From: Phoronis australis
Lineage: Eukaryota > Animalia > Phoronida
Assembly (NCBI GenBank): GCA_002633005.1
Contig: NMRA01000090.1
Location: forward strand, 985,453 to 1,049,452
DNA: 64,000 nucleotides
Reading direction: 5' to 3'
Position 1 is the stretch's first letter. Each line of letters opens with the position of its first letter. Position numbers and translations under genes: made by a program. Below are positions 8,576 through 38,300 of the stretch, one piece after another. A model generated the notes under the pieces. It worked only from the letters and a program-made list of their open reading frames with translations. It did not search any database and was not told the origin of the DNA.

Positions 8576-8606
8576 ATGCCATACGAAACTGACCCGGGCA
8601 GGGGGG
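8576..8606 (+). CDS. TICAM-like adaptor, putative coding exon 1 (MPYETDPGRG)
   Basis: ATG at 8576 and a strong donor G|GTAAGT at 8607. Phase 1 joins the TT at 17448 to give GTT (Val). Confidence 0.55.
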
Positions 8607-11600
8607 GTAAGTAAAGTCTTGAGTAGGCCTGGGTGGCTACATTCTTCAGAAACTCAGTCGCGACTGAAGCGTAAGATCAAACACACGGCAACTCAGAACT
8701 CACTTAATTGTATGCGGCCGAGAACTAACGCGCGCACGAATTTACTTGCCTCCACGGAAAGCAATCATAAACTACCGGGCACCGTATTCGTTCTCAGTAA
8801 AACCCCGGAGCTGTATTTATCTCATTGTAAAACCCTCTCTCTAGGGGGCGCTCTGCATAACGTATTGCATTTGATTTTGAGAGTATAAAGCTTACGTCTT
8901 CTTTCGGGCGCTGTTATATAGAATGTAGCTGACAGCCTTCATCAAAAACTTCTCTACCATTTATTTACTACAAAGTACAAAGGTAAATAACTTATTGTTT
9001 TGCTGAAGTCTTCGTAAGTAGCATATTCGTTTTTAAGGTTTTGATGGCCGCCGGAAACGGGGAACGTTATGCTGCATTAGTCACTGGGAAAACCCAGGGT
9101 TTTCGGTAGAATCCAAACATTTAGTTTCATTTACTAACTAGGAAAAACCCATTGCAATGCTCCTGTCTTTCCACCATGGCGTTGACATTGAAGGTACGTT
9201 TGTATAAAGCTAATCAAGTTACAGCCGAATTACAGAAGTCACATGTATGTGAATTGAAATAGTTTGTTTTTAAACGACGCAAAAGCCAGGCGACAGGGGA
9301 AACTAATTATAGACGTCATGAGTCACGACAGTTTGAGCCTTCCTTGTTTGCTACCGTTTCGTTACTCGCATCCGTTTTATATCAGTATTTCTCTTCCTGT
9401 TGAAGTCGTCAAATGTCAACCATACTGTGTACAGAGGGGCATACAGCTCAACTTGAGAGGATGATCTCTGTTCTAAAGTGCTGGCTTCGGAGTTCAGTGT
9501 TGTACAGCTGTCTAAACGGTGACCACCGTATCTAGATAGCCGCAGTAGAGATGGTGAAGCTTTTATAGGAGTTTCATATGCCAGAAGATTTTCGGCAAAC
9601 TATGCCTCGCACGGATGTTCTCATAAGATACTTTTGGCGCATAGAGGGATAGACACATTAGGAGGCAGTCAACGTCTTAAATAATTCTTTTGAACTCGAA
9701 CAAATACGCCCAAAATGAAACATTTTCTTCAAGCAGGCCAGTTTTGATACTTGCGTGCAGTCTTAGCGATGACATAGGAGCGCGTGTACTTTAAAATGGC
9801 CTGTTGCCGATTTGAGCAACTGAACGAAGGACTGTTGGAGTTGGAAGGTTCCAAGGTGTCCCTCTATGCGCAAAAGGTACTTACAATAACATGGTTTTGA
9901 TGATTTAATCAGTGTGAGGCATAATTTGCCAAAAAGCTTCCGGCATAGGAGCTTCACCGTGGCCAGCTATAGACGGTGGTCACTGTCTAACAGCTGTCTA
10001 GACAGTGCAGTAGAGATGCCATGATGCTCCCATAGGACCTTCATACAATGGAAGCTTTTCGATGAATTATGCCTCACACTGATTAATCCATCAAAGTCAC
10101 ATTGATATATTATTACCATATGCACATAGAGAGGGACACCTCGGGAGGCCATGGATGTCTTTGATTCCTTCAAACTCGAAAGAATACTCCCGTTATCAAG
10201 CTTTTTTCAAGCAGTCATCATTATGGTATTTCTTTGGCAATAATATCACGTGTGGATGTCCAAGGCGTAGAAGTGATGACCCTGTAATAGGAATTCTGAA
10301 ACTGATTTACCAGGGCATCAGTGACATAAACAAGTACACCCTCGAAAATATGAGTACACTTATAAGTATAATATTGACGTTACTCGTATTATTCGGTAGT
10401 ATTTGAACAGACACAGAGCAGATGTTCTGCGTTTTTCATCACATTTGGCTAGTGTATGTCTGGAAAGAGTGCAGAATATGCTTGTATTGAGCACTGTTTC
10501 TGTTTTAAATTGATTCTAATAAAGAATACTAAACAATATGCAGTCTGGAAACAGTTTCCTTTGAAAAAAAGATTGGAATTGATGGACACACTGACAAAAC
10601 TGCAGTTATCTTCTTTTAATTTTTGTCTTAAAAATGCACTAATTATAGGTCATTGACCAAAATGTTGTTACCTTACTTTTTGTAAGAAAAGTTGTCTGTC
10701 AACAGATGTTATGAGCTATGCAATGCATCGCTGAAATGGAAAGGAATCATCCCAGTGAAAAGGGTTCAATCGATTTATTTTTGATTGATAAAATGAAGGG
10801 TTCAAATTTAGAGCAATCTAAGGGGAAAACTCTACATGTTATATTTTTACTTTTGCTCGTAAGTTTTGAGACAAGAAGCTAAAAATGCTAGCTAGTTCAT
10901 TTTAATGTGTCTTAAACATGTGAAAGTTTTTAACGTCTTTTTGACTTAAGCCAGTACACTGACAAATCTATTTCAATTTCCGTTTTGTCATGAACATAAT
11001 GCAAATTATATAAGTCAGCTGACCAAAAGAAGAAGTTGAATGTGATGTTGGCATAAGAAAACAAGTCTGGCAGCAGACATTGTATCATAGAAAACTGGTA
11101 TGCCACATGGCGAAGTAAATTGCACTGGTAGTCATAGTTAGTAACATTGGAAGGGAAGACAAGTGTTAGTTCTTTATAATTTTCTAATTGTATACCTAGC
11201 AATCTAGCGCAAATCCCAATATTCAAATGAAAATTGAGGTCGCCAAAATTGAACTCTGATCTTGGCCGTTTTTTTTTTGCCAAACAATTCTGTCTTCAGT
11301 CTGTTTACTTTCTCACGTAGTTTAAGTGCTTATTTGATGATATGTGCCAACTAATAGTGAAGGTGGAAAGTGTTGAGTTCACAAAATAATATGAACAGTT
11401 GTGAACCAAAGGTATTGTAATTAAAGTTTGGAAGTCCACACAACTTTTTAAACGGATTTTGCATGAATTATTGTCTGACTTTTATACTTGCTGTGGTGCA
11501 TTCATGGTGACTTGGGATTTTTCCAGGTCGGCAAACACAATCTGAAGTCGTATTGATGAGCTGCAGGTTGCAAAATCGAGCACAGATATTGTAGATAGTC

Positions 11601-14600
11601 TAGCTCATCAATTTCATCCGGGTTCTAATGAGTTATGCATGAAACATCATTCCGGTAGTGACGCTCGTGAACCAGCTTGCCGAAGTCATTCGTGGCCATC
11701 ATTGTTTAAAAGCACATCAGACTGTGTTTGCCACCAGAACTTTAATTTTCAGTCAGTTTGGAGTACTACAGCACCTCTAGTGGCCGTTTTGTGCGATTGT
11801 CCTGTTGTTCAGATGTCTGGTTGATATCTCATAAACCACAAGGGCATGCTAATGGTATTTGAAACAAGGGTATAAGGCATCACTGAGCCAGTGCATGTGA
11901 CTCTCAAATCAACCCTGCCCATCATGGCCAGAAGGGTAGGGCTTAGGAGTGTTTTTGAGCTGAAACGTTTTCGAATATCTGGAGAACGGATGTATAGCTT
12001 TAAGTTAGCTTTGTCTCAATGATTTGTGACGATAATGCATCAGCTCCAGTCAATTTTGAGTGCTCAGATTCGACCTTTGCAGAACCCTTTAGTAGCCTGG
12101 TCTTTATCTATGGGGAGAGAGCTTTTCTGGAGAACCAATTGACCGCTTACACTGAGTCTTTACTTTCACATGTATTTAGTCTTATCAACCAATCATCATT
12201 TTTGGCTTGAGACACTTTTTATGTTTCAGGGACTGTTTGTTTTTCCTCTGAACTGCACTAGTGTCTCCTGTCCTGGCCCACAATGCAATGTGGTTCTCGC
12301 TTTTCACGTGAGTACCTGAGATTATGTTCTTTTTACAACTTTGATTTAATTTAATGTAGAATTTGTCACTTGACACAGACTTATGGTTGCACAATTTAAA
12401 GAATAAACTAAAGAAATGGAAATCATTGTTTTGTTTCTTTATTAGGCCAAAACCCATAATTGGTTCTGGACTGGTTTTTTGAAAATGGAATTGGTGGACC
12501 GGGTTCAGTTGTTTTTTGAGTTGCTCACCATTTCAAGAAGGAAAATCCACGATCAAAAATCATGTGTGATTTTTTCATGCATTACCTTAAGCAAATCAAG
12601 TCTTTTTACCCTTGCTTACGTACCTGGGGGCAGCTTTTGTTTGCTTGTCCGCTGTTATGTGCCCTCGTGTAGTAACACCGTGCAGGATGTTAATGAGATT
12701 TTGCAGAGGTGCTCCTAAAGGTGGATGAGCACAATTTTTGGAACCATATGATGACCACTGCGTCCCCTAGTAGCAATTTTATTTTACATTTCAGTAACTC
12801 AGTAACTATTGTATTCTCGGCATTTTTTCCATGATGAGATTTAATTATTTTTCTAATTGTGTGGAGTAAGGTCATATTTCTTTCTTGAGTCTTTAAGTCT
12901 TTTTCTCTGAGACAGACCCTTGGAGTATCTAACTATGTGTCTGTTACTTCCTTGTAGTCGACTCTGTGCAGCCTGTTGGTGACAATCTTCTAGACAATGA
13001 TGCAGGGTATGCTGTACCTGATCACAGAATGGTGCTTAACTCAGGTGAGTTTCCCTGGTTGGATGATGGAATTCGAATTGGGTGGTCTTAAAGGCGTTAT
13101 ATATCTGCATGTTATTAAGAGATAACATTTGGATTTTTATGTGTCCACATTGCTGTCATTTGTGTTCAGGTGTCCTGTGTCCACTGCTGTATCTCCTGAA
13201 TCCCTTGCCGTGGTAAATTGAGATTTCACAGATGTGCTCTCATCAAAATGACAACAGGACGAAGAATTTTCGAGCCGTCACACTTCTGCTGTGTTCCCTA
13301 TTGGCAATTTTAGTTTTTTACGTTTGTCTCTGTATCGTTGGAGTTCCTTGATGGATGTTCATGAAATCCGATCTTAGATATCTGTTAAGGTGTTGGCGAT
13401 GCCTTCCCATTTTCGGACAGATTAGCCGTATCTTGCTTCACCTAATGACTCTGTTTCTAGGCACCCTGATAAGCAGAGTTCCCTTATGGTTTTTCATGAA
13501 ATTTGGTAAATCAGTCTCTATTATGAAGACAACAATGCTTTGCAATTTTTGAAGAGATTTGATGGATTCTATCTGTGCTGCCTAATGGCCATTTTTATGC
13601 GCCCACATATTTATATGTGGACGCATTATGCCGTCATCTCTGTCCGTCCGTCCGTCCGTCCGTCCGTCCGGGCGGCGTCCGTCCGGCGTCCGGCGTCCGG
13701 CGTCCGCTGCTCTATCTCGAAAACCCTTTGACATACGTTCATGAAATTTGGCACATATGTTCCATTCATGAATGGGACGGCATGTGCGAACTTTCGGACG
13801 GATCCGACTACCGGTGTGCCCCCTAGTGGCAATTTTAGTTTTTTACGCTTACCTTTGTATCTTCAAAAGTATTGAACGGATTTTCATGAAATTTGGTATG
13901 TAGGCACCTATTAGTGAGATGACGCTATCCTACTGTTTTCAGATGGATTCGACGTAGTTTGCGCCACCTAGTGGCCATTTTTACTGTTTTCGAGTCTGTA
14001 TTTTTGCGTCCACCCCTCTATCAACCAAACCGCTCAAAGGATGATTGTGAAAATTGGCGTGTATGTGCTTACTATAAGGAAGACAGCTGACAATGATTTT
14101 CAGACGATTTGGACTACTGTGGCGCCTCCTAGTGGCAGTTTTGTTTTTTTGCGCCCATGGCTGTATCTCCCAAACCGTTTGCAGGATCTTTACTAAATTT
14201 AGCAAGTGTATTTATGTGATGTTGACAACGGACGATGACGACTTTAGGATGATTCTGATTACCGGTATGCCTCTAGTGGCAATTTTAGTATTTGCCTCTA
14301 GTGGCAATTTTAGTATTTTACATTGACCTCTGTATTTTCATAGGTCTTCAGGTGTATACTTTGTGTTACTTCGTGACTGTGAAGGAAAAGTTCCTAGTAG
14401 AAATTTGTTTCTGGCATTCTAATGCTGTGCTAATCTCGTATGTTGGTAAATTTGTTTTTAATTCTATGTTTCTGTGGTGCTTTAAGCAACTGGTGTATAG
14501 GATGTGCTTGTATTATGAAGATTACTCACATTTTGCCCCTAGCCTATTGAGGAGACAATGACCATGCCTTTCCATTTTGCAAAGTATGCCCTCTACTGGC

Positions 14601-17600
14601 CACTTTATGGTACCAATAAACAACCCTAGAAGGATACCGTATGCGGTGCAATTGTGGGCGCATTTCAACGCTCCGCGTTGCTCTTGTTATTCTTTTTGAG
14701 CTCACCTGAGTCTATATCTGCCAAACTGCTCAAGATCAATATCAAAATTGGCAGATGTGATCCCATTGATAAGAGCACGGCTGACATTTGATTTCATATT
14801 GGTCTGTCTACTTTGGCAGCCTCTAGTGCTACTGTCATATTTCATGGAATTCAGCAAATTCATTTTTCATTGGGATGACTACGCCTTCCCATTTTGAACA
14901 AGTTTGATGTGATATTTGTTGCATGTCTAAGTGGTTTTATCTGACAACCCTTAACATTTCTTGACTATCCTGACTGGCCCTGAACTCAGAAGTTTATTTT
15001 TGGGACAAATATGTGGTGTGGGAACTTTTGCAGTTTTATGACAAAATCACAGATGGAAATTTCAAGTAAGAAATCCCTGCAGCTTGCTCCTTCAACTCAT
15101 CGCTGCTAACTTTCTAGATCAAGATACACTTCCAATAATTTTGAAGAAATTAGAAAATTTTGTTGCACAAACAAAAAAGAGCCACTATAAAATCGTTATA
15201 ATTTGTTAACTTTGAAACTTAAAATGTGGTTCCGAATGCTTACGTACATTTTTTGGACAGTTGAAACTCCACTTGTGAGTCCGAATCCTGAACAAGTCGT
15301 GATGTACTAGTAACATCGTTGACAGAAATTCTAGCTGCTATTGCTTTGATCCCAGAAGTCAAGACAAATTATCATCAACATATCTGTCTAAATTTTGCCT
15401 CAACCTAGCCCGACGGACACATCAGTGAGCATATGGGTAGCCCAGTGTGTCCTGGGTGGGGTACTGATCTTAAAACCCCTAACATTTGGTGGAGTCTTGC
15501 CCATTGTACTGGCTGGCACTATTACATGGCTATGACTCAAAGTGCATGGCAACGAATGGGAAAGTATCTCCATTTTATTAAAAAAAAAACAGGCAAACTT
15601 GCTTTCACAAAGAACCTGTTGACCAATAAGAGGGCTCCCGTGAATTTTAGCTCCAATGTTTTGTGTAATAGGCTCAACCATGAGGCCTGGGCACGTCTGA
15701 TGCACTGCAAAAGACATCAGACCGTATGCAGTTTCTTTTTAAATTTCAGGGAGAATATTGCTCTTTCATTAAACTTTTTACTGCCAAATGAAAGACTAAC
15801 ATAAAGTAATTTTCTGATGTTGCAAATTGTCATTAGTGGCATTTTTATAGCTAAAACGTAGCAAACCAGATACAGTGGCCAAAAGCTGATATTGGCATTC
15901 ATGTGGGTCATGTTTGAAGTCTCCAAAAAGTGACGTCAGTGAAAGAGTTGCAACGATGTCTAACTGGAAAGCATACAAAACTGGGGTTTTGACTACAAAT
16001 GAATATTAACACCAAATTAACACTTAAATATTTGCATTAGAAGAATTCACTGAAGAACTTTGCCAGTCAGTCAGTTTGATTAAAGTTCGACGATTCTAAA
16101 TACAATGGACAGTCATGTCTAACTCTTTGAGCGTAGTAATGATGGACAGTGGGATGAGGCTGTGTGTCTTGAACCACAGAATCCAGTTTGCGACACAATA
16201 TAGATAAGTAGTAGCTGAACACTTGGGGAGAGGATACTAATTTCATGATATCTGGTGACTGAAAGAATGTATGAGGCATAGTTTGTGAACAAAAGGCAGC
16301 TGCGCTGGTCTAATTTTGGGGAAGCTATCGCTTTCTATGGTTATATACATCCTTACTCATTTTTCTCTGCAGGCGGAATGGCAGGTTTGAAGCCATTCTC
16401 CAGTCAATGCATTAGAAACCAATAACTGCAGTGCTTGCATTAATTCCAGCCATTAACTCAGGAGTAACGAATTATAGATTATTGTTATTTCCCATATCTT
16501 GACCCCAAGTGCGATTTTGAGGATTAGGGTAAATACCTGCTGAGCACGTGTACTAATTTATTTATCCACATCTTGACAATAAACTCTTACAAAACTCACG
16601 AATATTTAAATGCAGCTATATGCAGCGTAGTGTATCAGCGTAGTGTATCAGCGTAGTATATCAGCGTAGTGTATCAGCGTAGTGTATCAGCGTAGTGTAT
16701 CAGCGTAGTGTAGCAGCGTAGTGTATCAGCGTAGTGTATCAGCGTAGTGTATCAGCGTAGTGTNNNNNNTAGTGTATCAGCGTAGTGTATCAGTGTAGTG
16801 TATCAGCGTAGAGTGTGTGCGTAGTGTAGCAGCATAGTGTAGCAGCGTAGTGTAGCAGTGTAGTGTAGCAGCTAGTGTATCAGCATAGTGTATCAGCATA
16901 GTGTATCAGCGTAGAGTGTGAGCGTAGTGTAGCAGCATAGTGTATCAGTGTAGTGTAGCAGCGTAGTGTATCAGTGTAGTGTATCAGCATAGTGTATCAG
17001 CGTAGTGTATTAGCGTAGTGTGTGTGCGTAGTGTAGCAGCGTAGTGTATCAGCGTAGTGTATCAGTGTAGTGTATCAGCGTAGTGTATCAGTGTAGTGTA
17101 TTAGCGTAGAGTGTGTGCGTAGTGTAGCAGCGTAGTGTATCAGTGTAGTGTATCAGTGTAGTGTAGCAGCGTAGTGTATCAGCGTAATGTATCAGCATAG
17201 TGTATCAGCGTAGTGTATCAAATCAGACACTTGAGCGTCTTCTATCACGGAACATTGCAACATGTCCGTTACGTTTCCTGACAACCGTTATCTCTCATGA
17301 GAGATAACTCTATGGGTTATTACCTTGTAGTTATTTACTGTTCAACTTCAAGCAGATAAATGCTAATATGATGAAAAAGGATTTCATTTCTATTTCATCA
17401 AAGTCTGTTTAAGCAACTTTTCTCATCAATCAACACAACTTTTTCAGTTTCCAGTGGATCTAGTGGGTATGCTTCAGATCTCAGCCGCCAGGTGTCTCAA
17501 GTCTCAAATGAGCCGGAAAACAATATTGTCGATAGCGTCAATGGTCCCTTTGGTGATAGCGAAGATGACAATGATCGCCCTGTAGATGGCATGGTTTTTT

Positions 17601-20600
17601 ATGCTGCTCATGATTATGACGATGCTGAGAAATGGATTGAAGATATCAGGGAAAACGTCAAACTTAGAAATGGTAAGATTCTTGGCAGTTTGAGCATTGA
17701 ACATTTCTCCTGTCATTGTGCAAAGTTAGAGAGAAGGCCTTTCCAAAATATTCCGTAATTGCTGACCTCTTAAAATTTACGTATTGTTGTAACCAGCATA
17801 GCTTACTGTCAGGTTCAAGCTTGTGACTGCTTAAACTTCATTGGAAGAGTAAATATCGAAATTCAGTGCTTCACACTTAGCTTGACGCCAAGATCTGAAG
17901 GTGCATTTGACGACTTGGCAAAAATCGCAGGTCACCAAACAAAATCTGAGGTCGCCAAAAACTGACATTGAAATCGTCAAAAAAGGTCGTGCCATACTCC
18001 GTTCTTAGAAACTTTTGCTTACCTCTCCAATTTCTCCCCGAAAAAATGCGTACCATTTACTCTTTTACTCATATGCCACTGGAGATGAAACGCAGGCGAT
18101 CGCATACACTGGAGGCACGTGTTTCACCGATCTTGCTCGATTTTTGCTGAACAATTCCGACATCTGTCTGTTTACTTCCTGTTGTAATTTAAGCACATGT
18201 TTAATGTTTAACGTGTGCTGACTGTTGTGATGGCAAATGCACTGATTTCATGAAATAAATGGAACAATTGTGAATCAAAGATAATAAATCTAAGAAACCT
18301 GTTAGCAATTTAAAGTTTAGAAGTCAACACAACGGATTTTGGGGGAATTACTGTCTGACTTTGGTACTTGCAGTGGCGACTTTGTGGCGCCTTGGGATTT
18401 TTCCTAGGTCGCCAAAACACAATCTGAGGTCACATTGGGGACCTGCCGGTCACCAAATTGAGCACTAAAATTAAACCAAACCTTTTTTCAGGAAAACCTC
18501 CCGAATTTCGATTATTTGAAGTTAACTATGGAAAGAGCAAGTTTCATGAGCTGGATAAGGCAATGCGTCGCAGTACATACTGGTTGTTTTATTTGACATC
18601 AGAGCCGGACCCTTTTATTTTGAAAGCTCGTGACGAGTGCCTAGAAGAGGCCTTGTCAAACGAAGACCGTAGGTGGTCCATAATACCGATTTTTACTGCA
18701 CCAAAAGACAAGTTGTCAGTGCCTTCTGGTCTAAAGTCTATAGCTGGCATTTATACAGTTAGCACAAATATTAAATCTGTGTATAGCAAGATGAAAAAGA
18801 CATTCAATGAAAAACTCTACGAGAGGCTTGAGAGAGAGGAGCGTTGGAGGACTGAGAAACGGCAGACACAGATGAAAAAAGCAAACATGAAAAAGATGGA
18901 TGAGATACTGGAACGGGAGAAAGCGAAAATTAAAAGAGATGATGAGTTGAGAGACAAGCAGATAGAATTTGAAAAGGAAATGAATAAGGTTAAGCATAAA
19001 CATGCGCAGATGGAGGCTGCTCGAAAGGAGGAACGGCGCAGGGAGCAGCAGAAGTTGGCAGCAAATCCAGTGATTGGTTCATCTGCAATGAGTGGTGTTC
19101 TGGTAATTTTGAGTCTTTGTTGGCATGTTTTTACGAAATTTTTCTCTTGTTATTCTCTTTTTCATTGCTATACTTGACGGTGATTCCTTGAATGCATTGG
19201 TGATGTGTCAGGCATAGGAGCTGTTGCAGCTGATTTGAGTTGATTTCAAGTTGTGGCACATATCCTTGATGTATTCAATTTTTGCATCTTGTACAGTAAA
19301 TTCCAATAACAGGCAGACAAAATGATGTGGAATTCTCTGTCAAAATGACTGAACTTAAGTGTAATAATGCCCCGTCATTACAGCTAAGTGCTAACGGGAT
19401 TCACTGCCAGAGTGCCTGGAATGAACCGAAATGATGGGAAAACAAATTTTTGTCCAATTACTTCTGTGTAAGTCAACAATAAGTTTTCACCAATTCTAGT
19501 ACGGTTCAAGGCAGCCCTGGCTGCTGTCAATTCTAGATTGCTCTGAGTCTTCTCATAATTTCGGAACAACACTCACTCTTTTATTGACACATTGTGTATT
19601 AACCGTGATGTCAAAGTGAAGGCATGCACGCTACTGTAAGGGAGATATTTGTGAATTTTTTTAAGATTAGTGCAGACTGAGCTTTAGTGGTTGGATATGG
19701 TTGGTTGTGAGGACAGTTTGCATTGACTGCTGTTTCTGGTAAAGAACACCCTCAAATAATTCAACATGTCTATATTTTTCAGCCAAGAGAGACTCAATGG
19801 GATGGGGTGAGTGATCAACTCAACAGAGCTCCTGCTGATGTCAGGGGAGGTAACTCCCAGTCTTCACATTGTCACGCCAATGGAGCCTCAGACACCACTT
19901 GCACGGGTGAACGGGATGTGCCAGAGAGTCCTTTACATGGTACATATACATTAGTCACGATTGTTTTGATTTGTTAGAAGTGCTGGGCCCTCAATGCTTC
20001 GATTTTGGGACTGAATGTCGGTCCCATTCCCTTCTGAAAATATTTAAATTCATGAAAATCACCCCAATCAGGCCCAAACATTTCCCTGTGACAAATGATT
20101 AAAAGAATTCTCCTCAATAATGAATCACTTCTAACTCGGGCAGACTCTCGAATTCAAAAGGTTTTAATCTAAAATCTCCACTTCTAAAGCCGTGCCTTAT
20201 TTGAGTTTACTGTCTCGATGTGGAGAACACAATAAAGATTAGTCTATCTCAAGTATAGGTGTGATCACATAGTGTTGAGCAAAGGAAGTCAAGACTGAAT
20301 GTTGTGGCGACCAGGGCTGGAATTGGTGTTGATNGGAGGGGGGGTCTCTCTCAATAAAAAATTCTTTTCTCAGAAGGCACAGACATCTCCCCCTTAGGTG
20401 GGCGTGAGTTTCTCATTGCGTAATTGCTGTTTTAATCTTATTTCTCGTCACTGCAAATTTATTTTGATGACAGTAACTAACTACAATTAATATTATGTTA
20501 AAGACATTTTTCAGACTTGTTTGTTGCAACTTCCATGTTGCAGCTAGAGCACTGCTACAAGCAGACAACATTTTTGAAAAATTGTTGGCAACAACATATC

Positions 20601-23600
20601 AGAATAGCACTTGAAAAACGAGAAATGCAATTTTGCAATTATTTTTGTCCGAAATTGGTGAGATTTTACTGTACTAGGTCTAGAATAATTTTGCCTGATT
20701 ACACACGAGTATGAACTCTTATTTAGGTTTACTGAGAGCCATTGAGCCAGCTGTTAAAGATGGTGGCAACCTAACGGTCAACATAGAAAACCTGCAGATT
20801 GGGAACAACAACCAGGTGATGAAGACATCCTGTGGAGACACAGCAGGTGACAGGGACGGGGATGAGGATGTGGTGTACGTGCGTAAGGACACCAGCCATG
20901 ACCCCCGGTGAGTCGGCGGCATCTGTGCTGGCATTAGCGCGTGGGTTACACATTGTCTCCTATTAATTACAGTAGCAAAGATTGTGGTTAAAAGTAGTCC
21001 TGAGAGCAATGGACTCTTACTGTAATTTCTCTGCCCTTTAATCATTCATTTGTGATTGTTGTCCAGCTCTTTGTTTTGTTGGCTGTTGTTGGAACCAATA
21101 GTCAGAGTCTTGCTTTTATTTCAGTGCTGCGAATAGTCAAGAAGCAAGTGAACAGACATTGGTGATATCTAGTGTTCATAAAGTTGATAGGTGAGTGGGA
21201 AATGTTTGTCAAGATCTTGAGACAACTGTGTCATAAACAGTATCCAGTCACAGGTATACCCAAGATCTGCCCAGGCATATATTTGCCAGCACCAGGTATA
21301 CTCAAGATCTGCCCAGGCATATATTTGCCAGCACCAGGTATACCCAAGATCTGCCCAGGCATATATTTGCCAGCACCAGGTATACCCAAGATCTGTCCAG
21401 GCATATATTTGCCAGCACCAGGTATACCCAAGATCTGCCCAGGCATATATTTGCCACCACCAGGTATACCCAAGATCTGCCCAGGCATATATTTGTCAGC
21501 ACCAGGTATACCCAAGATCTGCCCAGGCATATATTTGCCAGCACCAGGTATACCCAAGATCTGCCCAGGCATATATTTGCCAGCACCAGATCATGTTACA
21601 ACCTGGCCCGGTTGGTTAATGTCAAGTGTTCACCTGTCGTGTGGCATTGCAATGGTGGATACCTGGCTGCTCCAACTACATGTAGGTATCCATCAAGTTG
21701 ACTTTCAGTGATTGCTAATGCCCTTACTAAAGTAAATGCGCTAAGCTTTTGGACAGCCTTCAACAATGAAGGAATGCCGCGATTTAGCTAGGAGGTTGCA
21801 AATCTTGGGCATATAGTTAGAGAGTTACATCACCTCTGGATATCTATACCTGGATTTAATCATGTCTTGTGGCTTCTATATGAAACTGTGAAATTGCCCT
21901 TCAGTTCAAGCCATAACCCCTAAAAAGCTCAAGTCTATAATATTAATTAATTCTACATCAATCCTTTATTTTTTTCAAATTTTGGTACATTTAAATTTCA
22001 GTCCACAAATGGTCTTTCACAACATTTAATTATTCACGACTGTTTGCGTCTCTATTTTTTTCCAAAAGAAGCAAAACTTGGAATTTTTCTCAACATTCGG
22101 TGGGTTTGCTTTTTTGTTCACCCTGTACGATGACTGGGAATTCTGTTTCATCTTGTTGGACCACTTTTGGCAGGCACTGTATTTTATTCTAATGGCCATA
22201 ACACTTCAAGTAACCATTCATTTGGTGGCTCATCAGTTATTGACTCAAGACCAAGTTTGCTTCCGTAATAGGCCCTAAATATGGGTAAATTTGGAACATC
22301 ACATTTCAAAAATGGCTGATTGTATTCTTGTGAATCTTCCAGAGACTACACATTGTTCTCCAAAACACTGTTGGGAAGTGCTATAAAAACATTGTAACAG
22401 TTGAAAATAAGACCTTTCTGATTTCCATGACAAAATGAAAACAAAACGATAATTTTAGAAAAGTGTAATCTCACTCAGCATTTATGGGGTCTCATAATGA
22501 ACATTTACACGAAGTAAAATATTATTATGTTATTGATATCATTGTTTTGCTCTCAGTGGTTTTACCTTTCTTTATACTTAATGTTACTAAAAAGATAAGG
22601 TTAATATGCGACTCAACTAATGGCAGATTGGTACATGAAATGTCAAAGACCAAATTTTAAGGCTTTCTGCTTCTAGAAAACATATACTGCAAACCTCACA
22701 GATACAGACAAAATGCAATTTAATTCGGAAATACCAAATACGAAAGTAACATGAAAAATACCTCAATACTGCCGCTCCCTGGCTCTCCTCACTGATGCCA
22801 AATATGCACTGCCACAATGTGAGTAAATCGAGTCAGCGCACAACTCTTATACTGAAATGAGGGTCGGGTCACATGCAAATTACATTCAGTCTATTCATCC
22901 ATGAATATACACGTGACCATGAGCCACCCGGAGCAAACAAACGTGAAGTATCTTACAATAAAGTTTTGTAGATATTTGACTAAATACACCAGTGAGGTAA
23001 TTTAAGTCTAACAAAATTCCATCTGCCTTTCAGTGATCGTTTAGATGATGCCTGTATCACCAGTGTGAAGAGTACTATGTCCAGTGGTGTGGTGGCGAAC
23101 GTTGCTGGCGCGGAGGCGAGTCTTGCCCCAGGGTTGACCACATGTACAGAACAGAAGGTTTTAAGTCCCAGAGAGCAGCATGAAAACACAGGTGAAATAG
23201 ACTGGCAGATGATGCTGCCCTCTGTTGTTTTCTGGACTCGCTTATTGAATTTTCAGGGATCGAAGTCTGCAGACTGTAATGAGTGTTTGACATAATGTTG
23301 TCTAGTTTTGAGTTTTGACAAAGATTTTGTAATTTCAACCTGGAAATTGGTTATGTTACTGCGATTTGATATCAGTCTGAACTTAAATCAACCGAATGTA
23401 GTTTTTAAAAATGGCGACAATATTGCTTCTCATCAAAACTGAGGAAATTTCGGAACCAAAAATTTCTGTTAATATTTGTATGAATTAGTGTACCAATTAT
23501 TCTTTCTGGTTCAAAATGTTTCTTCTTTGTTACAAAGGTTTTTTCCATACAAATAATTTTTATCATGGCTGAGATTTTGTAGCAATTCAGTTAGCCCTTG

Positions 23601-26600
23601 AAAAGAGGAAATACTGCAACATTAATTTGGGCAATTATTTTTGTGTGAATAAGAAAAAGTCTTAAAACCTAACTTTGAACCTTTGTGTGTGAAATGTATT
23701 GAGACAGTGCAAGTTAAGCCAACCGTTTTTTAATGCAAAATACTTAATATGTGATGGGATGATACAATATGCCGTAACAAAGTTCGGAGTTCATCTACAA
23801 AATCACATGTCCAGTGTTACCAAAGTAACGAAATTGCCTTTGTAGCCTTGCAGTAAAACTTTTGCACCTGTCCAGCAACATGAACAGAAAGTTAAAAAGT
23901 GCATAACATCAAAATATGACAACTATCCAAATTGATATACAGTACAAATTGATATACAGTACAAATTGACATACAGTACAAATTGATATACAGTACAAAT
24001 TGATATACAGTACAAATTGACATACAGTACAAATTGACATACAGTACAAATTGACATACAGTACAAAGTAATTCAACTGGACAATGTGGACTGTTGACTT
24101 TTTTATTACTTTTAGTAAAATTGTAATGAACACGTCAGGCCTTTCCCTACAGTGTGTCCGGGGCATCCAAAAGGAAACTAGATTCAAATTTAGATACCCA
24201 GTTAGAAGACTCTGTTCAGCATTTGAAAACCCAAATAACTGAGCAACTAAGCATTGGCTCCTCTTACTAGCTGCAGCTCAGGGACCAACAGTTCACTTAC
24301 CTGTCCAGGATAAAATAGTTGGTTTAGAAATGATGGAAGACACAAAAAATAGTGCACATCAACCATTTTTTCATGGTAACATACCACAGTATAACAGCAA
24401 TATGATTTGAGATTATAAAATGCTGCTGTGCATTATTGGTCAAGGACGCCCTGAGAAATTGAAAATCTCATTTTGCATGCCTTATTTTGAAACCCTGGAT
24501 GAACCGCTGAATGAACCTCTTGTTTAGTCTGGAGATTTTCGTAGTTTAACTGTGAACAAATTTCTGTGCTTTGTCAGCTTGCTTTGCAAATTTCCTGTGT
24601 GGATAGTAATAATTTCTGTGTTAACATTCATGTTGGCAACACATGCAACAGGATGGGAAGGAGATGAGATCAAACAAATTGGTATCTTTGCAAATACGCA
24701 ATGTGATATGCAGTTTATTTTCAACTTTAGCGTATGTGGAGTCACTGAAGATGATACAGACAAAGTCCGTTCCTGACATTGACGTTGGAGACCCAAAGAG
24801 CTCCAAGTCTTGCAATAGTGCTGTCTCATCTCCTTTCATGGATGGGATGTCCACTCAAGGCGGGACCAGCATCGAGGGTACTTCGGTTAAGGGTTTGTGT
24901 CTGAGCGGCTCTGGGAGTGCAGACATTGCTGATGGTGGAGCTGATGTTCAGAGGGAGACTCCATCGCACTATATCTGCCAGGCGGACGAAGATCCTGCTA
25001 ATCAAGCAGAGATGATGGCCCAGAAATTAGGTAGGAAATGTTCACGGTGAGAAAGGCATGCCCTCTGGTGTAGATTATGCCCGGGTACATGCTTTTTAAT
25101 TTAAAGCGAGAAATAATTAATGATCCTGTGAGCACGGTTCAGTGCCTACAGTCCAAAGGCTGTATTGTATAAAGGTTCAATAGTTGGACAGCAATAGTCG
25201 ATGTCTGTTTAGTTCAAAGACTCCATAATTTGAAGTTTTTATTGGGTGAAAGTTATATAGTTGGTTCTAGAAAACATTCAAAATATAGACAATGTTTAGG
25301 TCACAGACTGCAGCGACCTCTACAGTAGTGAAGTAGAATCTCAGAAAATAAGAGTGTGTTACGAGCATTTTCAGAAAATTGGAAGCTTGAGGATGAAGAA
25401 GTAATTGTCACGTTTGCCAGTCGATACAAAGGGATGGATCTCAGTTTTTGCCAAACAGGTTTACCAATGCGTAAACTGTAAGTTAATTGCTGCGGTCAAT
25501 TCGCAGGCGAGTAGAAATCATGTTCTGTAATCCCTAGTGGCGACAAGTTTTATATTTGATCGCACTTCCATTTTGTAGTCGCTCATGGCAGCTTCGGGGT
25601 TGCAAAGTTATGTCCTGCATGTGTGTGTGTATGTGTGTGGGTGTGGGNTGTGTGTGGGTGTGTGTGTGGGTGTGGGTGTGTGTGTGTTTGTGTGTGTGTG
25701 TGTGTTTTCATGCCCTTGGGAAGGTGCAGCTGTGTCCAAATCTGAGCACTTTTGTCTGTTTACCAATTTTGCATTGTATTGTTTTGAATTGTGTCGATAT
25801 TGAATTGTGTTGTATTGAACTCTATTGTATTTTATAAAGTATTTTCTTGGACAAACAATATTTAATCAAACATATTAAATCAATCAATAAAAAATATGAA
25901 ACATGTCTCAAATTGGTTCACAGTCAAATTACAGGTGATTTCTGGACATAGAATTATCTGGCAGTTATCGCTTAAAGCTTTTGGTTATCTGGATTGGCCA
26001 TGGACGTACTTTTTTTGCAAAACTATCCTAAAAAGCATGGTTACATGACCTAATTAATACCAAATTGGTGTAGAGTCAAAAATACAATTTCAAGGAATTT
26101 CTACTCTCGGAAAACATATAATTTTGCAGAGTTAAATTTGATGTTTTAGTTGATATTTTCCTAAGTGTACAGACTTGGCGACAAGGTCCTACATAACCTT
26201 AAATGTGCGCTAGTGAAGTTGGCTAAGTATCCATTACGGTGCCAAGAATTGATAAAACTGCATCAAAAACATCCAGGTGTATGACCTCCTCATTTGTGCA
26301 AGAGTCACTATAACTGCATCTGTTGATGACACTTGGTCTGCTCCCACCCACTCTGTGGAAATTAAAAATAACCTATTTCTGGTACACGAGATGTAATGTA
26401 AGGATTTATCCCAGCATCTTTCGATCTATTTAAGGTAACTACGAATTGCCAGTCAAAGTACGTTATGCTGGCGTGAACAAAGAATCAGGCACCCCCCAGT
26501 CACTCACATTCACTCAGGCGTCCGTCGATGAAGGGTCCCCGTCTTTGCCATCGTCTGCCTTCCCGACAGTCGTCGATGCACATGGAGAACAGGACACGTC

Positions 26601-26964
26601 CGAGCCAATCAGAATACCAGGGAATGCTGACGAATCATTGCAAAGACACACAGCATGCAGTTATGACATCGGCTGTTCATCGTCAGAGGCTTCTGGAAGA
26701 GGAGAGGAATCTAATGTAAATTGTGAGAGCAGTACTACTTGGTATCGTACACTAGATGATGCTAGTGATCTAAATGGTAGCATGTCACCAGGACAGACAG
26801 CTAGAAGTGAGCAAACGGAGAAACAATGTCTTGACCCATTGAGCCACAAACGCCAGTATTTGACAACAGAGGGCACTCACGCTGAAACTGAACCAGGGTC
26901 AGATGTTGTTGAGGATAGCAGATCAAAAACAAATGGTGGAGGCAAAAAATGTGCGATAATGTGA
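8576..26964 (+). CDS. TRIF/TICAM-like cytoplasmic adaptor: TIR + coiled coil + TRAF6-type motifs + RHIM + C-terminal CaaX (about 730 aa, 8 exons)
   Basis: Exons 8576-8606, 17448-17672, 18492-19102, 19783-19939, 20727-20907, 23034-23191, 24731-25030 and 26435-26964. All introns are GT-AG with matching phases (1,1,0,1,2,1,1). Total 2193 nt = 730 aa + stop with no internal stop. The TIR (GMVFYAAHDYDDAEKW...DKAMRRSTYWLFYLT...WSIIPIF...KTFNEKLYERLEREERWRTEK) resembles the TRIF TIR and its trailing helix. Exon 1 is the least certain. Confidence 0.82.
9086..9104 (+). promoter_or_regulatory. Candidate NF-kB/Rel site GGGAAAACCC within the inverted repeat GAAAACCC-A-GGGTTTTC
   Basis: Matches a known Rel/Dorsal-type site. 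Lies about 480 bp into putative intron 1 of the TIR adaptor gene. Function untested. Confidence 0.35.
9503..10215. repeat. Three diverged copies (+,-,+) of a unit of about 200 bp forming a long inverted repeat
   Basis: GATTTAATCAGTGTGAGGCATAATTTGCCAAAAAGCTTCC (about 9902-9940) is the reverse complement of GGAAGCTTTTCGATGAATTATGCCTCACACTGATTAATCC (about 10050-10090). 9503-9735 is a direct copy of 9990-10215. Confidence 0.7.
11230..11585. mobile_element. Partial copy of the 17864-18467 MITE family
   Basis: TAAAGTTT.GAAGTC.ACACAAC...TGTCTGACTTT...TTGGGATTTTT.C.AGGTCG.CAAACACAATCTGA is shared with 18310-18430. Confidence 0.65.
13592..14688 (+). mobile_element. Helentron-associated non-autonomous element (HINE/DINE-1-like)
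   Basis: Starts in a T-run. Sub-TIR ATGCGCCCACA (13597-13607) lies within a 5' hairpin, followed by a (GTCC)n microsatellite and internal degenerate repeats (CTAGTGGCAATTTTAG). The inverted sub-TIR TGTGGGCGCAT is at 14653-14663, then a 3' stem-loop CAACGC-TCC-GCGTTG and CTCTTGTT. Confidence 0.85.
15400..15725 (+). mobile_element. 5'-truncated 3' fragment of the same LINE family
   Basis: ATGGGTAGCCCAGTGTGTCC...TTAAAACCCCTAA and GCACGTCTGATGCAC.GCAAA match 37915-38185. Confidence 0.75.
16623..17220. repeat. 13-bp minisatellite (CAGCGTAGTGTAT)n containing an assembly gap
   Basis: Read directly; about 45 copies with variants; N run at 16764-16769. Confidence 0.95.
17448..17672 (+). CDS. TICAM-like adaptor exon 2 (SSGYAS motif, acidic linker, start of TIR)
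   Basis: TTTTCAG acceptor and G|GTAAGA donor. Open frame SSGSSGYASDLSRQ...GMVFYAAHDYDDAEKWIEDIRENVKLRN. Confidence 0.85.
17864..18467. mobile_element. Non-autonomous DNA transposon (MITE) in intron 2 of the TIR gene
   Basis: Ends CAGTGCT...AGCACTA are flanked by an AAATT direct repeat. Subterminal GGTCGCCAAAA repeats. A second partial copy lies at about 11230-11585. Confidence 0.7.
18492..19102 (+). CDS. TICAM-like adaptor exon 3 (TIR core + E/K/R-rich coiled coil)
   Basis: TTTTTTCAG acceptor and CTG|GTAATT donor. Lies within ORF 18458-19177. Confidence 0.9.
19783..19939 (+). CDS. TICAM-like adaptor exon 4 (begins PRETQW, a TRAF6-type motif)
   Basis: TTTTTCAG acceptor (phase 0) and G|GTACAT donor (phase 1). 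Confidence 0.8.
20727..20907 (+). CDS. TICAM-like adaptor exon 5 (RHIM motif)
   Basis: TTTAG acceptor and CG|GTGAGT donor. Encodes GGNLTVNIENLQIGNNNQVMK. Confidence 0.85.
21250..21588. repeat. 42-bp minisatellite, about 8 near-identical copies, intronic
   Basis: Unit ACCAGGTATACCCAAGATCTGCCCAGGCATATATTTGCCAGC. Confidence 0.95.
23034..23191 (+). CDS. TICAM-like adaptor exon 6
   Basis: CTTTCAG acceptor (phase 2) and G|GTGAAA donor (phase 1). Encodes DRLDDACITSVK...SPREQHENT. Confidence 0.78.
23928..24067. repeat. 17-bp minisatellite (AAATTGAYATACAGTAC)n, about 8 copies
   Basis: Read directly. Confidence 0.92.
24731..25030 (+). CDS. TICAM-like adaptor exon 7 (low-complexity, symmetric phase 1-1)
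   Basis: CTTTAG acceptor and G|GTAGGA donor. Lies within ORF 24643-25050. Confidence 0.78.
25620..25705. repeat. (GT)n/(GGGT) microsatellite
   Basis: Read directly. Confidence 0.95.
26435..26964 (+). CDS. TICAM-like adaptor last exon, ending in CaaX box GGGKKCAIM*
   Basis: TTTAAG acceptor (phase 1). Frame is open to TGA at 26962-26964 (ORF 26446-26964). Confidence 0.82.
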
Positions 26965-28919
26965 AGTGCTAACTGAAGAGCTATTGGCACAAGTGTACAC
27001 TTAAAATACCAAAAATAACTGGACAATCTCTTACTGTTTATTGTTGGCTGTGGCTCAGAGACACCTGTTGGTGGTTGATCATAGGAGAATTTGTGCATGA
27101 ACTAGTGGCTTTGGTTCGAAACATTGTGCGCTTGGACCTAGTTCAGCAAGATGTAGACAATTGGCGATGTCTTTAAACAAACAATTGGTGTGTATTGTGA
27201 GGAGTTATCTCTGTAATCTTGGGAAAATTGTGTGAGTCAGCTTGCCTCAGATATTGTTGAAGATGGTGGATTGTACAAGCTCAGTATAAATACTTCCATT
27301 CAGTATTTTAAAAGCAGGTAAATTTACCGTTAGATACTGCAAGATGATTGCCCGCATGTTTGTGGACTAAAAAGTTAGTTATTGGATGGGTGTTTGAGAA
27401 ACAAACATTTGTACTTGGCATGTTTGAAAAAATGAATCTTTTATTGTGTTACACAGGCTATTCGCGTTACTTTGATGTGTCCAACACATTTGTTTCAGGA
27501 TACTAGTGGCAAGATTTTTCATCTTATACAATGCAAGTAATGAGCATGGTTGGAGTTGAGTGATTTTGTTGGTTGCCGTTTGTCTTTAATGGGTTGAGGG
27601 TTTTGAAAATGGGCAGTTCCGAAGTATTTTTCCAGTCATGGAGGGCAGGTTCTCGGGGAATGACCCTTAATCTGCCTGTGCCTATCAAAAGGTGCTCAAA
27701 GGCTGTCTATGTTGCCTGTCTCGCTTTGTTCAATCATAGTCAGTTGTTTGTTTTTCTGTATTTATAATATAATAATGAATCATTGGTCTATGGAAATGTA
27801 TGCTCTGTGTAAGTAGATCATCATTTGTTATGCACACTTGGTGAGCGTTGGAGGCTGACCCAAGCTTTTTCTCAGTCATGTAATGATTTATTAAAATGTT
27901 GTGTGGTTACACCTTGTGGAAATACATGTAATAGGCGGAGTTCAGTGTCTAGCTCTGATACACTGGGGTGGCAAAGGAGCAATTCAGTTTTGGGGAACGC
28001 CGAAACGGATCGCACAATGCTTCCGGCGACTCAAAACCATCAGTGAAGTGCAAAGACAATTAATATTTTCCGAAATTTATAAACATTGCATTCATTTTGG
28101 TTTAAAATTTTTCCGATTTCGTAATGTACATCCAGTGAATACTGATATAGTGCGCTCTACGTAACTGTTTATCAAGGTACATGCAGGGTGGTTGCTTATT
28201 TGGTGTGGTTCTTTGAATTGAATTGAAACACTTGCCAGTGACATCTTTGGAAATCATTATTCCCCTAAGTCAGCCTATGGTTTTAATGACTTCAGTCAGA
28301 CCCCAGTTCTGTCTTCTCACTTGTTGATGCATCAATGGCGTCAATCTTGAAAGATAAATTCATGAATCAACTAAAAACTTGATTCTTATTGTGGGTTGTA
28401 TTTACCCACACTAATTATTGCGAAGTTTAGCTAGGTCACGCTTGCTCGTCCAGCGGACTCCGAAATGAGCCAAAATTTTCTCCTAACTTTTGAGGGTTGT
28501 CTAGGGTTACATACATGTAGTATCATTGTGTTTAATGGATTTGTGTGGGAAAGTCGCTTTTACTATGTGGTAGGAGGTCAAACCGGGTTCAAGTTTAATG
28601 AGGCAGGTCATGGCTGAAGCTGAATAACGAAACGCAGTACGAGTTATTGTTACAGCTAGAATTCTTTTCTTATGTACACTAAGTAACGAGGACCGAGATG
28701 GGACTAATTTTTCTAGCAATAGGCACGTACTGATAGATTGAGATCGAATTCTAGAGTGACGAAAATAGCCAAATGCACAGCTTGGTTTTGTTTGACTGAA
28801 GGCGTACGGGATTATTGCCCTTAGAGTCTCAGTACGGAGCAAATCTTGCACGGTAGATTGTGGTCTTGCGTAGTAAACCACGCCCGTTTGTTATGTCATT
28901 TCATTATTCTGTACATATT

Positions 28920-35300: not shown

Positions 35301-38300
35301 AAGCCACTGTACACTTTTAGGCTCTTTGCTCATGCCTCCATATCCCAAAACCTACTCACACATATTCTAAATGAACGGCATTTTGATTATTAGTTGTCTT
35401 CTGTTAAAAGTATTGTTAACCCGCCTTCCGTCGAAAATTTTTCTTCTAAAAACGTTTTAGTCACTTATGGTTCATTAAATTGATCTCAGTTTGTCCCTTT
35501 CTAAAATTAGACGTATCATTTGAGCCAAAAGTTTGTATTCCCACCTCACACTTGACTAAGAGTGAGACTTAACACCTTCGTTACCGGTGATGGATTTTTT
35601 CAAATACCTTCACTCCCAAATCATTTATATAACCCATGTAGGTTCTTTGGCACGAAAACTCGGCAGCCTAAATCAAGACTTTCATTTTTCCAGGAATTTT
35701 GACCTTTTTGTTTCTGACAGCTGAGTTCTCGGTATAATAGTCCACAATTAATATCATCATCCTGTAGGTTTCAATAATGCTTGACGCTTTAATGCTATTC
35801 AAAAATATTTCTATCATTGCCTCGCCAACGTGAAATACATATGTATTTTCATTGTCTGGGTAGAACATTATACGTACAGTGTACTTTGACTTGACGGCAT
35901 CGTTGATTTGCTTCTAATGACAATGTTATCTATCGTACAATTAATACTAGTGCTCCGAAAATGATTCATTTTTACTCCTTTACAGAGAAGTACCGCTATG
36001 ATTCGTCATATGGCATCTTTCAATATTGACCATTCACATACAAGTCCAAAAATATTCATTTCATACCTATATGATCACAGAAGGTTTCTCTCGAATTGTA
36101 AAACAAGATATTAAATTATTAGGTGATATCCTTGCACCTGTGCCACACGAATATCTGTTATGCATTCAAAGCACTTTTAACGTACATCAAGATCTGCTCC
36201 GTGTCACAAATCTTCCTTGCAGTGATGTGCCGTCACGCACTTCATAAACTGTTCGCCATGCCTGATCTTTCAGTGAGATCTACAGATCCTTGCCCAAACC
36301 CTAAACACTAAGTGGTAAATCACACAAAGCTATGGATGCAGGGACAGACTGCTGTCAATTTTCTCGGATACTGTGACCAACACTGCAACAAGGTGTGTTC
36401 GTGAGTGTGATACCAGTCTGGTTTCTAAGGTTTGGTCAGGAAGCTAGCAATCTCAAACATCAAACCTGACAGCCAGTTCCACGACCAGGCATGAGTTTTT
36501 ATGGACCAGGAAGCTACTTAAGTTGACATCGACTCTTTGGATGAAACCGGCCTAGTTGTCTGTGCAATGGCAACCCTGAATTCTCTGAGATATGAAAATT
36601 AGGTACATGTATGAGTGAAAGTTGCTACCGAACACAGCCTCAGTTCAGACGGTTGATGCAAGCCCTCCTACGTCGACTTTGGTGAAGTACTATAGCCTCA
36701 CACTAGCTGTACATGTATTACAACTCCAGATCCAGAAATGGTTAAGTGTCTCATTCTGTGCACCGGGGCTCTAAAGTCCATACAAAGCAGGGCACCATCT
36801 GTAATGTGGAATGTGTGCCAGTACTCCAAATGACATTGATTTATGCCGCTGTTATCCGACCTGTAATGTCTTATGCTGCGTCAGTATGGGTAACAGCGTT
36901 AAAACAGTTTACAATTATCAACAATCTTTATCAGACGCAACGTCTTGCTTGTTTGTACACCATCTCTGCTTTTCCAGGAACGCCCCCTACAGCCATGGAA
37001 ATGCTAATCGGTTTACCACCACTGTACATATACATGTACTTGAGGGTGAAGTTGCATGTTCAGGGCTTCGTCTCAGATACACGTATAATCATGGTCAGTT
37101 GGTGAAAACTCACATCCCCGATTCCGTTGCACACGAAAGCCTCAGGAATGTGTGCAATAAGCTAATGGTAAAAATTGGGCAACTACGGAACATGCCTAGT
37201 GATGTCCAGATCACCGCTTCGAATTGGTGATAGATGGCCTACCGCAGAACACAACAACGAGGTGGTTTATTAGAAGCATGACTCTAAACTGGAGAATGGC
37301 CAGACAGTCGCTGGAATGTATTTTCTAAGCCTATATGTTGCAGATGCAGAAAGCTGTGTATCGTAGGCAATCTTGCCATAATGTTCTAGGATGAGATCAC
37401 TGCAATTAATAGAGCTGCTCAACTGGCATGACACTATAACACCGAGCTGAGTAATCAGCCAAATACCTATTTTCAAATAGCCTGAGCAGCAATGAATCCC
37501 TAAAGAGACCAAGGGTCAACTCTCGATGCTTGCATAATGAGCTTAACAAGCTTACACTTGAAAGAACCGTCAATATACACTGGGTCAGAGACCATGTGGG
37601 AATTGACGGCAATGGAAATGCAGACAGACTCGCAAAGACAGGAGCCAGCATTCTGCATTGTGTACATGAACCTGCTATCCTGGTATCTTACGGATGCTAC
37701 AAGATGAGTATACGCAACTGCTGGGTACATACATGTACATGTACCCAATCAGCAGCCCTGTGAGCAACAATTAACTACTGCAGAGAGACGGAAGAGAATT
37801 TTTTGAGCTTCATCAAACCAAAGGTTCAAAAAAACCTTCAGAGTCTCGATACACGTCATTCAAATTTTGACAGACCACTGTAACCTAGCTCCACACAGAC
37901 ACATTTCTGGGCCCATGGGCAGCCCAGTGTGTCCCGAGTGTGGAACTGACGTTAAAACCCCTAATCACCTAAGGAGTAACCTACTGGATGACACTGCTAC
38001 ATGCCTACAACATATAGCGCATGACAACAAACGAGAATGTCTGTCCGTTTTCGTAAAGGAGACAGGCAGAATTGAAAACTTCCTTCACGAAGAACCATAA
38101 CGGGGCTCTCGTGTTTTTAGGTCACGTGTTTGGTGCAATGGGCCCAACCATTAGGCCAGCGCACGTCTGATGCACCGCAAATGAAACCAGTAGGTCTTAT
38201 GCACTGTTTTTTGTTATGACATTGATTCTGAGTCTGACAAGGATAACTAATCTCTCAAGCCACTTAGTTTCTTCTCCACTCATTTCCGCAGAGTGGCCTC

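Follow-up and report, generated by a model that had tools for sequence, protein, structure and literature searches.

A 64,000-nucleotide stretch of the Phoronis australis genome (assembly GCA_002633005.1, contig NMRA01000090.1, positions 985,453 to 1,049,452 of the forward strand; hereafter the window, with coordinates counted from its first letter) carries on its plus strand a gene whose predicted product has a TIR domain followed by a charged helix, then a RHIM-like motif and an extended tail of low complexity, and ends in a CaaX box. Our best reading, held with modest confidence, is that this protein of about 780 residues is a signalling adaptor of the TICAM lineage, predicted to tether itself to membranes by farnesylation. 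The gene is real and spliced, and the exons encoding the TIR domain, the RHIM-like motif and the CaaX box are linked in one RNA chain. The pairing of TIR and RHIM is itself already known from TRIF and from amphioxus TICAM. Judging from sequence and modelled structure, the Phoronis protein is apparently a conserved, undescribed variant of this kind of adaptor, and invertebrates of this sort, which were thought to lack the Toll-receptor adaptor, are likely to have a self-anchoring version of it.

The first-pass annotation of this locus proposed eight exons encoding 730 amino acids. All eight have AG/GT ends and their joined frame is open. Four public RNA runs, comprising assembled contigs (X1) and raw reads (X2-X4), were mapped over 17230-21245 and 22900-28400; they carry one species label, stem from at most two studies and derive from other individuals, whose letters differ by a few per cent. 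The raw exonic reads are stranded and place the RNA on the plus strand. They join 17672 to 18492 (9, 10 and 9 reads in X2, X3 and X4, an order kept below), 19102 to 19783 (13, 10 and 8), 19939 to 20727 (15, 19 and 22), 20907 to 21125 (9, 18 and 10), 23191 to 24731 (12, 16 and 10) and 25030 to 26435 (8, 13 and 9). The fourth of these joints leads from the exon with the RHIM-like motif to an exon that the annotation had missed (21125..21190; 66 nucleotides, phase 2-2, in frame), whose tail also accounts for the loose ends found before 23034 in an X1 contig, 11 reads of X2 and 19 reads of X3. A 1377-nucleotide X1 contig spans seven exons, from part of the one starting at 18492, through those starting at 19783, 20727, 21125, 23034 and 24731, to part of the one starting at 26435, the computed length being 1375. 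The concern that the CaaX or RHIM exon might not be spliced to the TIR exons is therefore not borne out, the joints linking all of them into one chain.

At the 5' end, the alignment of two X1 contigs begins at 17444 and so takes in the last four letters of the intron before 17448. Because this four-letter overlap fits the end of an open, in-frame 87-nucleotide segment at 12958..13044 (phase 1-1; donor of 11.8 bits, weak acceptor of 3.2) and not the end of 8576..8606, the former is probably the second coding exon, on this indirect evidence. The putative first coding exon, 8576..8606, is assigned from sequence: a stop lies in frame 24 nucleotides before its ATG at 8576, position -3 is an A, and the exon is followed by a GTAAGT donor. 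With both additions the ten-exon model encodes 781 amino acids; the eight exons and the motif order of the earlier model are retained, and its exon count and length are revised. RNA depth runs through the stop codon at 26962-26964 into a 3' untranslated region of about 1 kb (26965..28027), which is delimited by stranded depth and by an X1 contig reaching 28027, and which contains an ATTAAA hexamer at 27890.

The TIR domain is divided between two exons. The first, 17448..17672, carries an SSGYAS segment (17459-17476) and the opening TIR strand and helix (from about 17582), and is delineated by RNA depth, its joint to 18492 and the family profile; the second, 18492..19102, encodes the rest of the TIR domain (to about 18817) and the charged helix (about 18818-19057). 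A phmmer search with 120 residues of the latter exon against 1.84 billion representatives, at expectation values (E) up to 0.001, recovered 59 homologous proteins with a best E of 1.5e-11 and identities of 30-40%. Among the 30 relatives that were looked up, 14 clusters were named (8 bivalve, 3 gastropod, 2 Lingula and 1 annelid), with no chordate among them; several had been chosen for look-up by a C-terminus of the form CXXX, so the named clusters are an unfair sample of such ends. These mollusc, Lingula and annelid proteins share the TIR family and are labelled 'uncharacterized', 'hypothetical' or by low-complexity likeness. Pfam TIR_2 matches 41 of the 59 at E up to 0.05 and just one above the curated cut-off, which is why annotation misses them. 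A profile of the 59 relatives that excluded the Phoronis protein scores the joined TIR domain (residues 85-245) at 124 bits, and in the ESM Atlas the TIR exon maps to TIR_2 clusters at 0.91, the nearest clusters being bacterial TIR_2 proteins. Single exons matched neither TIR nor RHIM in Pfam, and phmmer searches of single exon pieces against the PDB gave chance matches only. Beyond the TIR domain, the helix and the RHIM-like motif we found no local similarity between the Phoronis protein and its relatives, and the tails are unalignable. In a tree of all 60 sequences the Phoronis protein forms a long branch outside both the clade of named molluscs and the clade of the Lingula and annelid clusters. 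These relatives may already figure as an ecTIR-DC family in the catalogue of Gerdol et al. 2017. In one relative, P0056, the TIR domain is fused to a peptidase domain of trypsin type, which exceeds the cut-off of Pfam Trypsin_2. The length of the charged helix varies within the species label: at 18995-19010 an X1 contig shows in-frame gaps of 9 and 6 nucleotides and many residue changes in the helix.

As to the type of TIR domain, a 29-row family profile searched against the PDB ranked TICAM2 (TRAM) first at 8e-13 to 3e-12, followed by TICAM1 (TRIF) at 1e-4 (1.4e-4) to 6e-3, MAL at 0.46 and TLR2 at 1.8. With a 60-row profile TICAM2 again came first (1e-11), and TICAM1 scored 0.006, behind some low-complexity matches; the mussel relative P0026, searched alone, matched only TICAM2 (9e-6, three of three matches). 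A structural model of relative P0036, with a predicted local distance difference test score (pLDDT) of 87, gave the Foldseek ranking TRAM (1e-7), MAL (5e-6), TRIF (9e-6) and MyD88 (2e-5), and VIA-align Z scores of 17.8 for TRAM (root-mean-square deviation 3.1, 152 residues aligned), 17.0 and 16.9 for TRIF and 16.1 for MyD88. The margin in favour of a TICAM-type domain is large by sequence and small by structure. Four residues after the conserved alphaC tryptophan, at what we take to be the catalytic position of NAD+-cleaving TIR enzymes (NADases) from the consensus and the TRAM alignment of the 29-row profile, the 59 relatives have S, Q or A and never Glu, the Phoronis protein has A, and TRAM too has a residue other than Glu. 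The alphaC glutamate is described as critical for NADase activity (PMC7075850). No hydrophobic stretch is evident by eye in the 781-residue model. The TIR domain would thus be soluble, non-enzymatic and of TICAM type. The family profile and the fold of P0036 uphold the first-pass assignment in this respect, and the alternative of a non-TIR fold finds no support in the relative's model, which matches TRAM and TRIF best.

The exon at 20727..20907 contains the RHIM-like motif (20771-20821; core LQIG at 20792-20803). A beta-strand with an xQIG-type motif, placed after the helix, scores above all 1200 shuffles in 24 of the 59 relatives, including 17 of the 23 with at least 650 residues. Two profiles drawn solely from relatives give the Phoronis motif 6.8 and 5.9 bits, the shuffle maxima being 2.4, 3.8 and 4.5. 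Pfam RHIM, with a cut-off of 20 bits, gives 19.8 bits to the motif of a Lingula relative, and the post-helix positions of the 60-row family profile weakly match the RIPK3 amyloid chain 7dac (E 0.21). By these comparisons the Phoronis motif is a weak, correctly placed member of the family's RHIM-like set. What remains of the earlier RHIM assignment is a RHIM-like motif shared at the same place in the family; the strict pattern, published as [IV]Q[ILV]GxxNx[MLI] (PMC9440496), and Pfam RHIM both fail in the Phoronis protein. In one comparison, none of the 181 letters of this exon differs in the X1 contig, against 3 to 14 in neighbouring exons, which is no more than suggestive.

Two exons of the low-complexity tail (23034..23191 and 24731..25030) lead to the last coding exon (26435..26964). 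This exon, expressed and spliced, ends in two lysines, CAIM and the stop, the CaaX box lying at 26950-26961. The CaaX codons are immediately preceded by a run of six A (26944-26949), which is one A longer in 5 of 49 reads of X2, whereas none of 31 reads of X3 and none of 28 of X4 has this insertion. It would change the reading frame so that the CaaX box is lost, and is either a rare allele or a homopolymer error. A CXXX end is found in 8 of the 59 relatives and, among the 23 long ones, in 6, a frequency with a binomial p of 5e-6 if 2% of residues are cysteine. The letters are of CaaX type in seven of the eight (CTVS, CKMS, CKIS twice, CIIQ, CLIS and CTTL), with basic residues upstream; the eighth (CFNI, in a 359-residue record) is probably due to chance. 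TIR domain, RHIM-like motif and CaaX box occur together in five long relatives, from Potamilus, Argopecten, Pecten, Mya and Lingula, and in a Gigantopelta isoform that ends in CSTM, a shorter isoform of the same gene stopping earlier. Uncharacterised records with TIR domain, RHIM-like motif and a CXXX end are XP_013406434.1, XP_069138396.1, XP_033749753.1, WAQ98041.1, KAK3589016.1 and XP_041372742.1. The CaaX box noticed at first pass is accordingly substantiated, both in the transcript and by its enrichment and co-occurrence in bivalves, a gastropod isoform and Lingula; joint conservation of all three elements holds in some relatives, and many others have no CaaX box.

Under the usual rules for prenylation substrates, a final M, S or Q directs farnesylation and a final L geranylgeranylation. 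The Phoronis CaaX box has four basic residues nearby and no second cysteine close by; within 30 residues of the box a second cysteine is seen in one CaaX end of the long relatives and not in the Phoronis protein. By the rules of prenylation this points to farnesylation with weak binding of endomembrane type. An N-terminal myristoylation site is absent from the Phoronis model, which starts with MP if the putative first exon is right, and two of the 59 relatives start with MG. One of them, P0052 of Patella caerulea, has a TIR domain and a RHIM-like motif, starts with MGNG, a possible myristoylation site like that of TRAM, and has no CaaX box. Among the other relatives without CaaX, P0002, P0007 and P0011 end in DEVD, DELD and SEVD, which we take to resemble caspase-site or TPR-binding ends, and the clam proteins P0050 and P0032 end in T-x-V, presumably akin to PDZ-binding ends.

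Other short motifs fared less well. The first-pass annotation saw a TRAF6-binding motif in PRETQW (19783-19800), which is indeed present and opens the linker exon at 19783..19939. Motifs of this type arise in 14 of 100 shuffles of the Phoronis protein, and PxExx[FWY] is found at scattered places in 5 of the 37 relatives of at least 450 residues. Being at chance level in shuffles and not conserved among relatives, the motif was dropped from our reading as probably a product of chance. The 84 residues preceding the TIR domain do not include a TRIF N-terminal domain. A DSG-type motif upstream of the TIR domain occurs in 9 of 46 relatives and, as SSGYAS, in the Phoronis protein; we take it to be suggestive of a phospho-degron and no more than that. 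In intron 1 a presumed kB site was rejected, as it does not fit the consensus.

Under our preferred reading, farnesyl-transferase would modify the cysteine of CAIM, and the resulting anchor, which has four basic residues and lacks a second cysteine close by, would hold weakly and prefer endomembranes. An activated TIR-bearing receptor would then nucleate a filament of the non-enzymatic TIR domain, whose clustering would bring the RHIM-like motifs together and recruit a RIP-type kinase. Once recruited, the kinase might activate NF-kB independently of MyD88 or cause cell death; there is a reported precedent in amphioxus TICAM, which signals to NF-kB through RIP and its RHIM (PMC6043800). PRETQW would not be needed for this mechanism. 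One chain would in this way do both what TRIF does in signalling and what myristoylated TRAM does in sorting.

Several observations weigh against this reading. The fold was obtained for relative P0036; the Phoronis TIR exon, folded alone from its single sequence, did poorly (pLDDT 51) and gave no fold match. The structural ranking is narrow, MyD88 (Z 16.1) lying within 1 of TRIF and MAL coming second in Foldseek. The tree covers the Phoronis protein and its 59 relatives, and orthology with chordate TICAM is putative. The Pro-x-Gly of the TRAM and TRIF BB loop is absent from the Phoronis protein and present in one of the 59 relatives. Its RHIM-like motif is weak, departs from the published pattern at both ends and matches no RHIM in Pfam or the PDB; 14 of the relatives scored for this motif also seeded the profile used, and the mussel relative has a CaaX box and no detectable RHIM-like motif. 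The 781-residue model contains no pLxIS match. Finally, 17 of the 23 long relatives have no CXXX end.

Two rival explanations, both of which we judge unlikely and to an equal degree, take up these points. According to the first, the protein is a membrane-tethered inhibitor or decoy, whose TIR domain and RHIM-like motif soak up receptor TIR domains and RIP kinases. The BB loop speaks for it: the TRIF group is described as having the motif ExFxxPG (PMC7075850), and mutations of P116/C117 in TRAM abolish signalling (PMC11788365), whereas the Phoronis loop has no proline, and a proline anywhere in the loop is found in 21 of the 59 relatives. The lack of conservation of the TRAF6 motif and the absence of a pLxIS also count in its favour, and amphioxus TIRA, TIRC and SARM are reported to be inhibitory TIR proteins (PMC6043800). 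However, the full TRIF-like order of TIR domain, helix and RHIM-like motif is kept across three phyla, and NF-kB is activated, according to the same review, by the TICAM of amphioxus, which likewise pairs TIR with RHIM.

The second of these rivals holds that the protein is an activating TIR-RHIM scaffold outside the TLR pathway, serving another TIR receptor, development or cell death, or that its CaaX box is an optional, isoform-dependent localiser and not a substitute for TRAM. The divergent BB loop is compatible with this, as are the scarcity of CXXX ends in the long relatives, the Gigantopelta isoforms with and without one, the start of the gastropod relative P0052 with MG instead, and the distance of about 550 residues between anchor and TIR domain in the Phoronis protein. 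Some of the long relatives without CXXX are visibly cut models (P0018 compared with P0088) and others are annotated full models (Haliotis and Ruditapes), so loss or alternative ends of the CaaX box do occur. Set against this are the retention of the box, at a frequency well beyond chance, in bivalves, a gastropod and Lingula, and the fact that all listed joints of the Phoronis gene lead to the CaaX exon.

More improbable still is that the protein belongs to an invertebrate TIR family, such as an ecTIR-DC group, that is not orthologous to TICAM. Its resemblance to TRAM would then stem from features common to non-enzymatic TIR domains, and its RHIM-like motif would be an independent gain. The low identities, to lophotrochozoan proteins only and with no chordate among the named clusters, leave some room for it, and so does the literature: a TIR survey limits TRIF-like TIR domains to gnathostomes (PMC7075850), many unrelated amphioxus proteins carry RHIMs (PMC4262963), and ecTIR-DC families are described as widespread in invertebrates (PMC6321704). 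Against it stand the eleven orders of magnitude that separate TRAM from MAL and TLR2 over the whole domain in the profile search and the TIR-then-RHIM order, which matches that of TRIF. That the TIR domain is a NAD+-cleaving enzyme like SARM1 or the bacterial TIRs is very improbable, for the proximity of bacterial TIR_2 clusters in the ESM Atlas is outweighed by the complete absence of Glu from the inferred catalytic column.

These results bear on a gap in the literature on invertebrate immunity. Most of the sources consulted (PMC9440496, PMC7075850, PMC6043800, PMC6321704, PMC9334734, PMC3308963, PMC12521104, PMC4892480, PMC11788365 and PMC4262963) place the origin of TICAM in amphioxus and regard TRIF and TRAM as absent from molluscs, in the portions available. 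A TICAM-like gene in amphioxus, which the earlier note had mentioned, is indeed described in the review PMC6043800. Among these reviews and transcriptome papers, TRIF and TRAM are reported missing in oyster, mussel and Aplysia, and one calls for 'an as yet unknown adaptor'; oysters are said to have TBK1, RIP1 and IRF with no recognised TRIF (PMC4892480). One weak TRAM match in Mytilus edulis is noted, and cnidarian TRIF/TRAM cited, in PMC3308963, and TRAM/TICAM2 is listed in a scallop pathway figure (PMC12521104). We found no paper on a TIR-RHIM-CaaX protein in the literature searched, which left out most subscription papers, so an earlier description is possible. The family described here offers specific candidates, identified by accession, in molluscs that are farmed or serve as models, and in this way makes the question of the missing adaptor testable.

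A broader evolutionary scenario is possible, and we offer it tentatively as somewhat less probable than the assignment of the protein itself. A TICAM adaptor with TIR and RHIM may already have existed in the last ancestor that protostomes and chordates share, the lophotrochozoans keeping a prenylated, self-anchoring form whose tasks were later divided among TRIF and TRAM. In molluscs, annelids and brachiopods this form could be the adaptor so far missing from an amyloid-based TLR pathway independent of MyD88, and isoforms with and without the CaaX box could tune the site of signalling. If true, a prenylated TIR-RHIM adaptor would add a third means of bringing TIR signalling to a membrane, the two others being myristoylation and phosphoinositide binding.

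The surroundings of the gene are less telling. Within the window, synteny with vertebrate TICAM loci yielded no informative neighbour, 3 of 103 flanking frames matching Pfam. On the minus strand, 54829-55392 and 61582-61995 belong as exons to a nearby gene that encodes EGF repeats and a MAM domain, and a plus-strand RNase H fragment at 37455-37760 is probably a decayed retroelement. The introns contain tandem arrays at 16623-17220 (period 13), 21251-21589 (period 42) and 23928-24067 (period 17); the 42-mer array has long stop-free frames on both strands and lies outside the spliced transcript. In the 3' untranslated region, at 27355-27418, reads of three runs step back by 64 nucleotides (8, 4 and 19 reads), indicating a duplication allele.

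Among known systems, several immune proteins anchor themselves or are prenylated, namely Drosophila MyD88, with its phosphoinositide-binding tail, ZAP-L, OAS1 p46 and the GBPs. The likeness is that an adaptor of the Drosophila MyD88 type sorts itself to membranes, and that a CaaX box, sometimes isoform-specific, places an immune protein. To our knowledge, none of these is a TICAM-type TIR protein with a RHIM. The amphioxus bbtTICAM, compared by description, is closer in being an invertebrate TICAM-type protein with TIR and RHIM in one chain and a proposed NF-kB output via RIP; unlike the Phoronis protein, it is described as the oldest TICAM and chordate-limited, and no CaaX box is mentioned in the available text of the sources (PMC6043800, PMC11788365). 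It was not among the named matches of the phmmer search with the TIR exon. Human TRAM/TICAM2 is the best sequence and structure match of the family's TIR domain and likewise has a lipid anchor. It is a TIR-only, N-myristoylated protein (PMC9440496), in contrast to the Phoronis protein with its C-terminal CaaX box, RHIM-like motif, long tail and lack of the BB-loop Pro-Cys. Compared with human TRIF/TICAM1, the Phoronis protein lacks the N-terminal domain, the pLxIS and a conserved TRAF6 site, and its RHIM-like motif lies mid-chain, followed by 380 residues and the CaaX box; yet TRIF is the second-best match of the TIR domain, and in both proteins the TIR domain is followed by a helix and then by a RHIM or, in the Phoronis protein, a RHIM-like motif.

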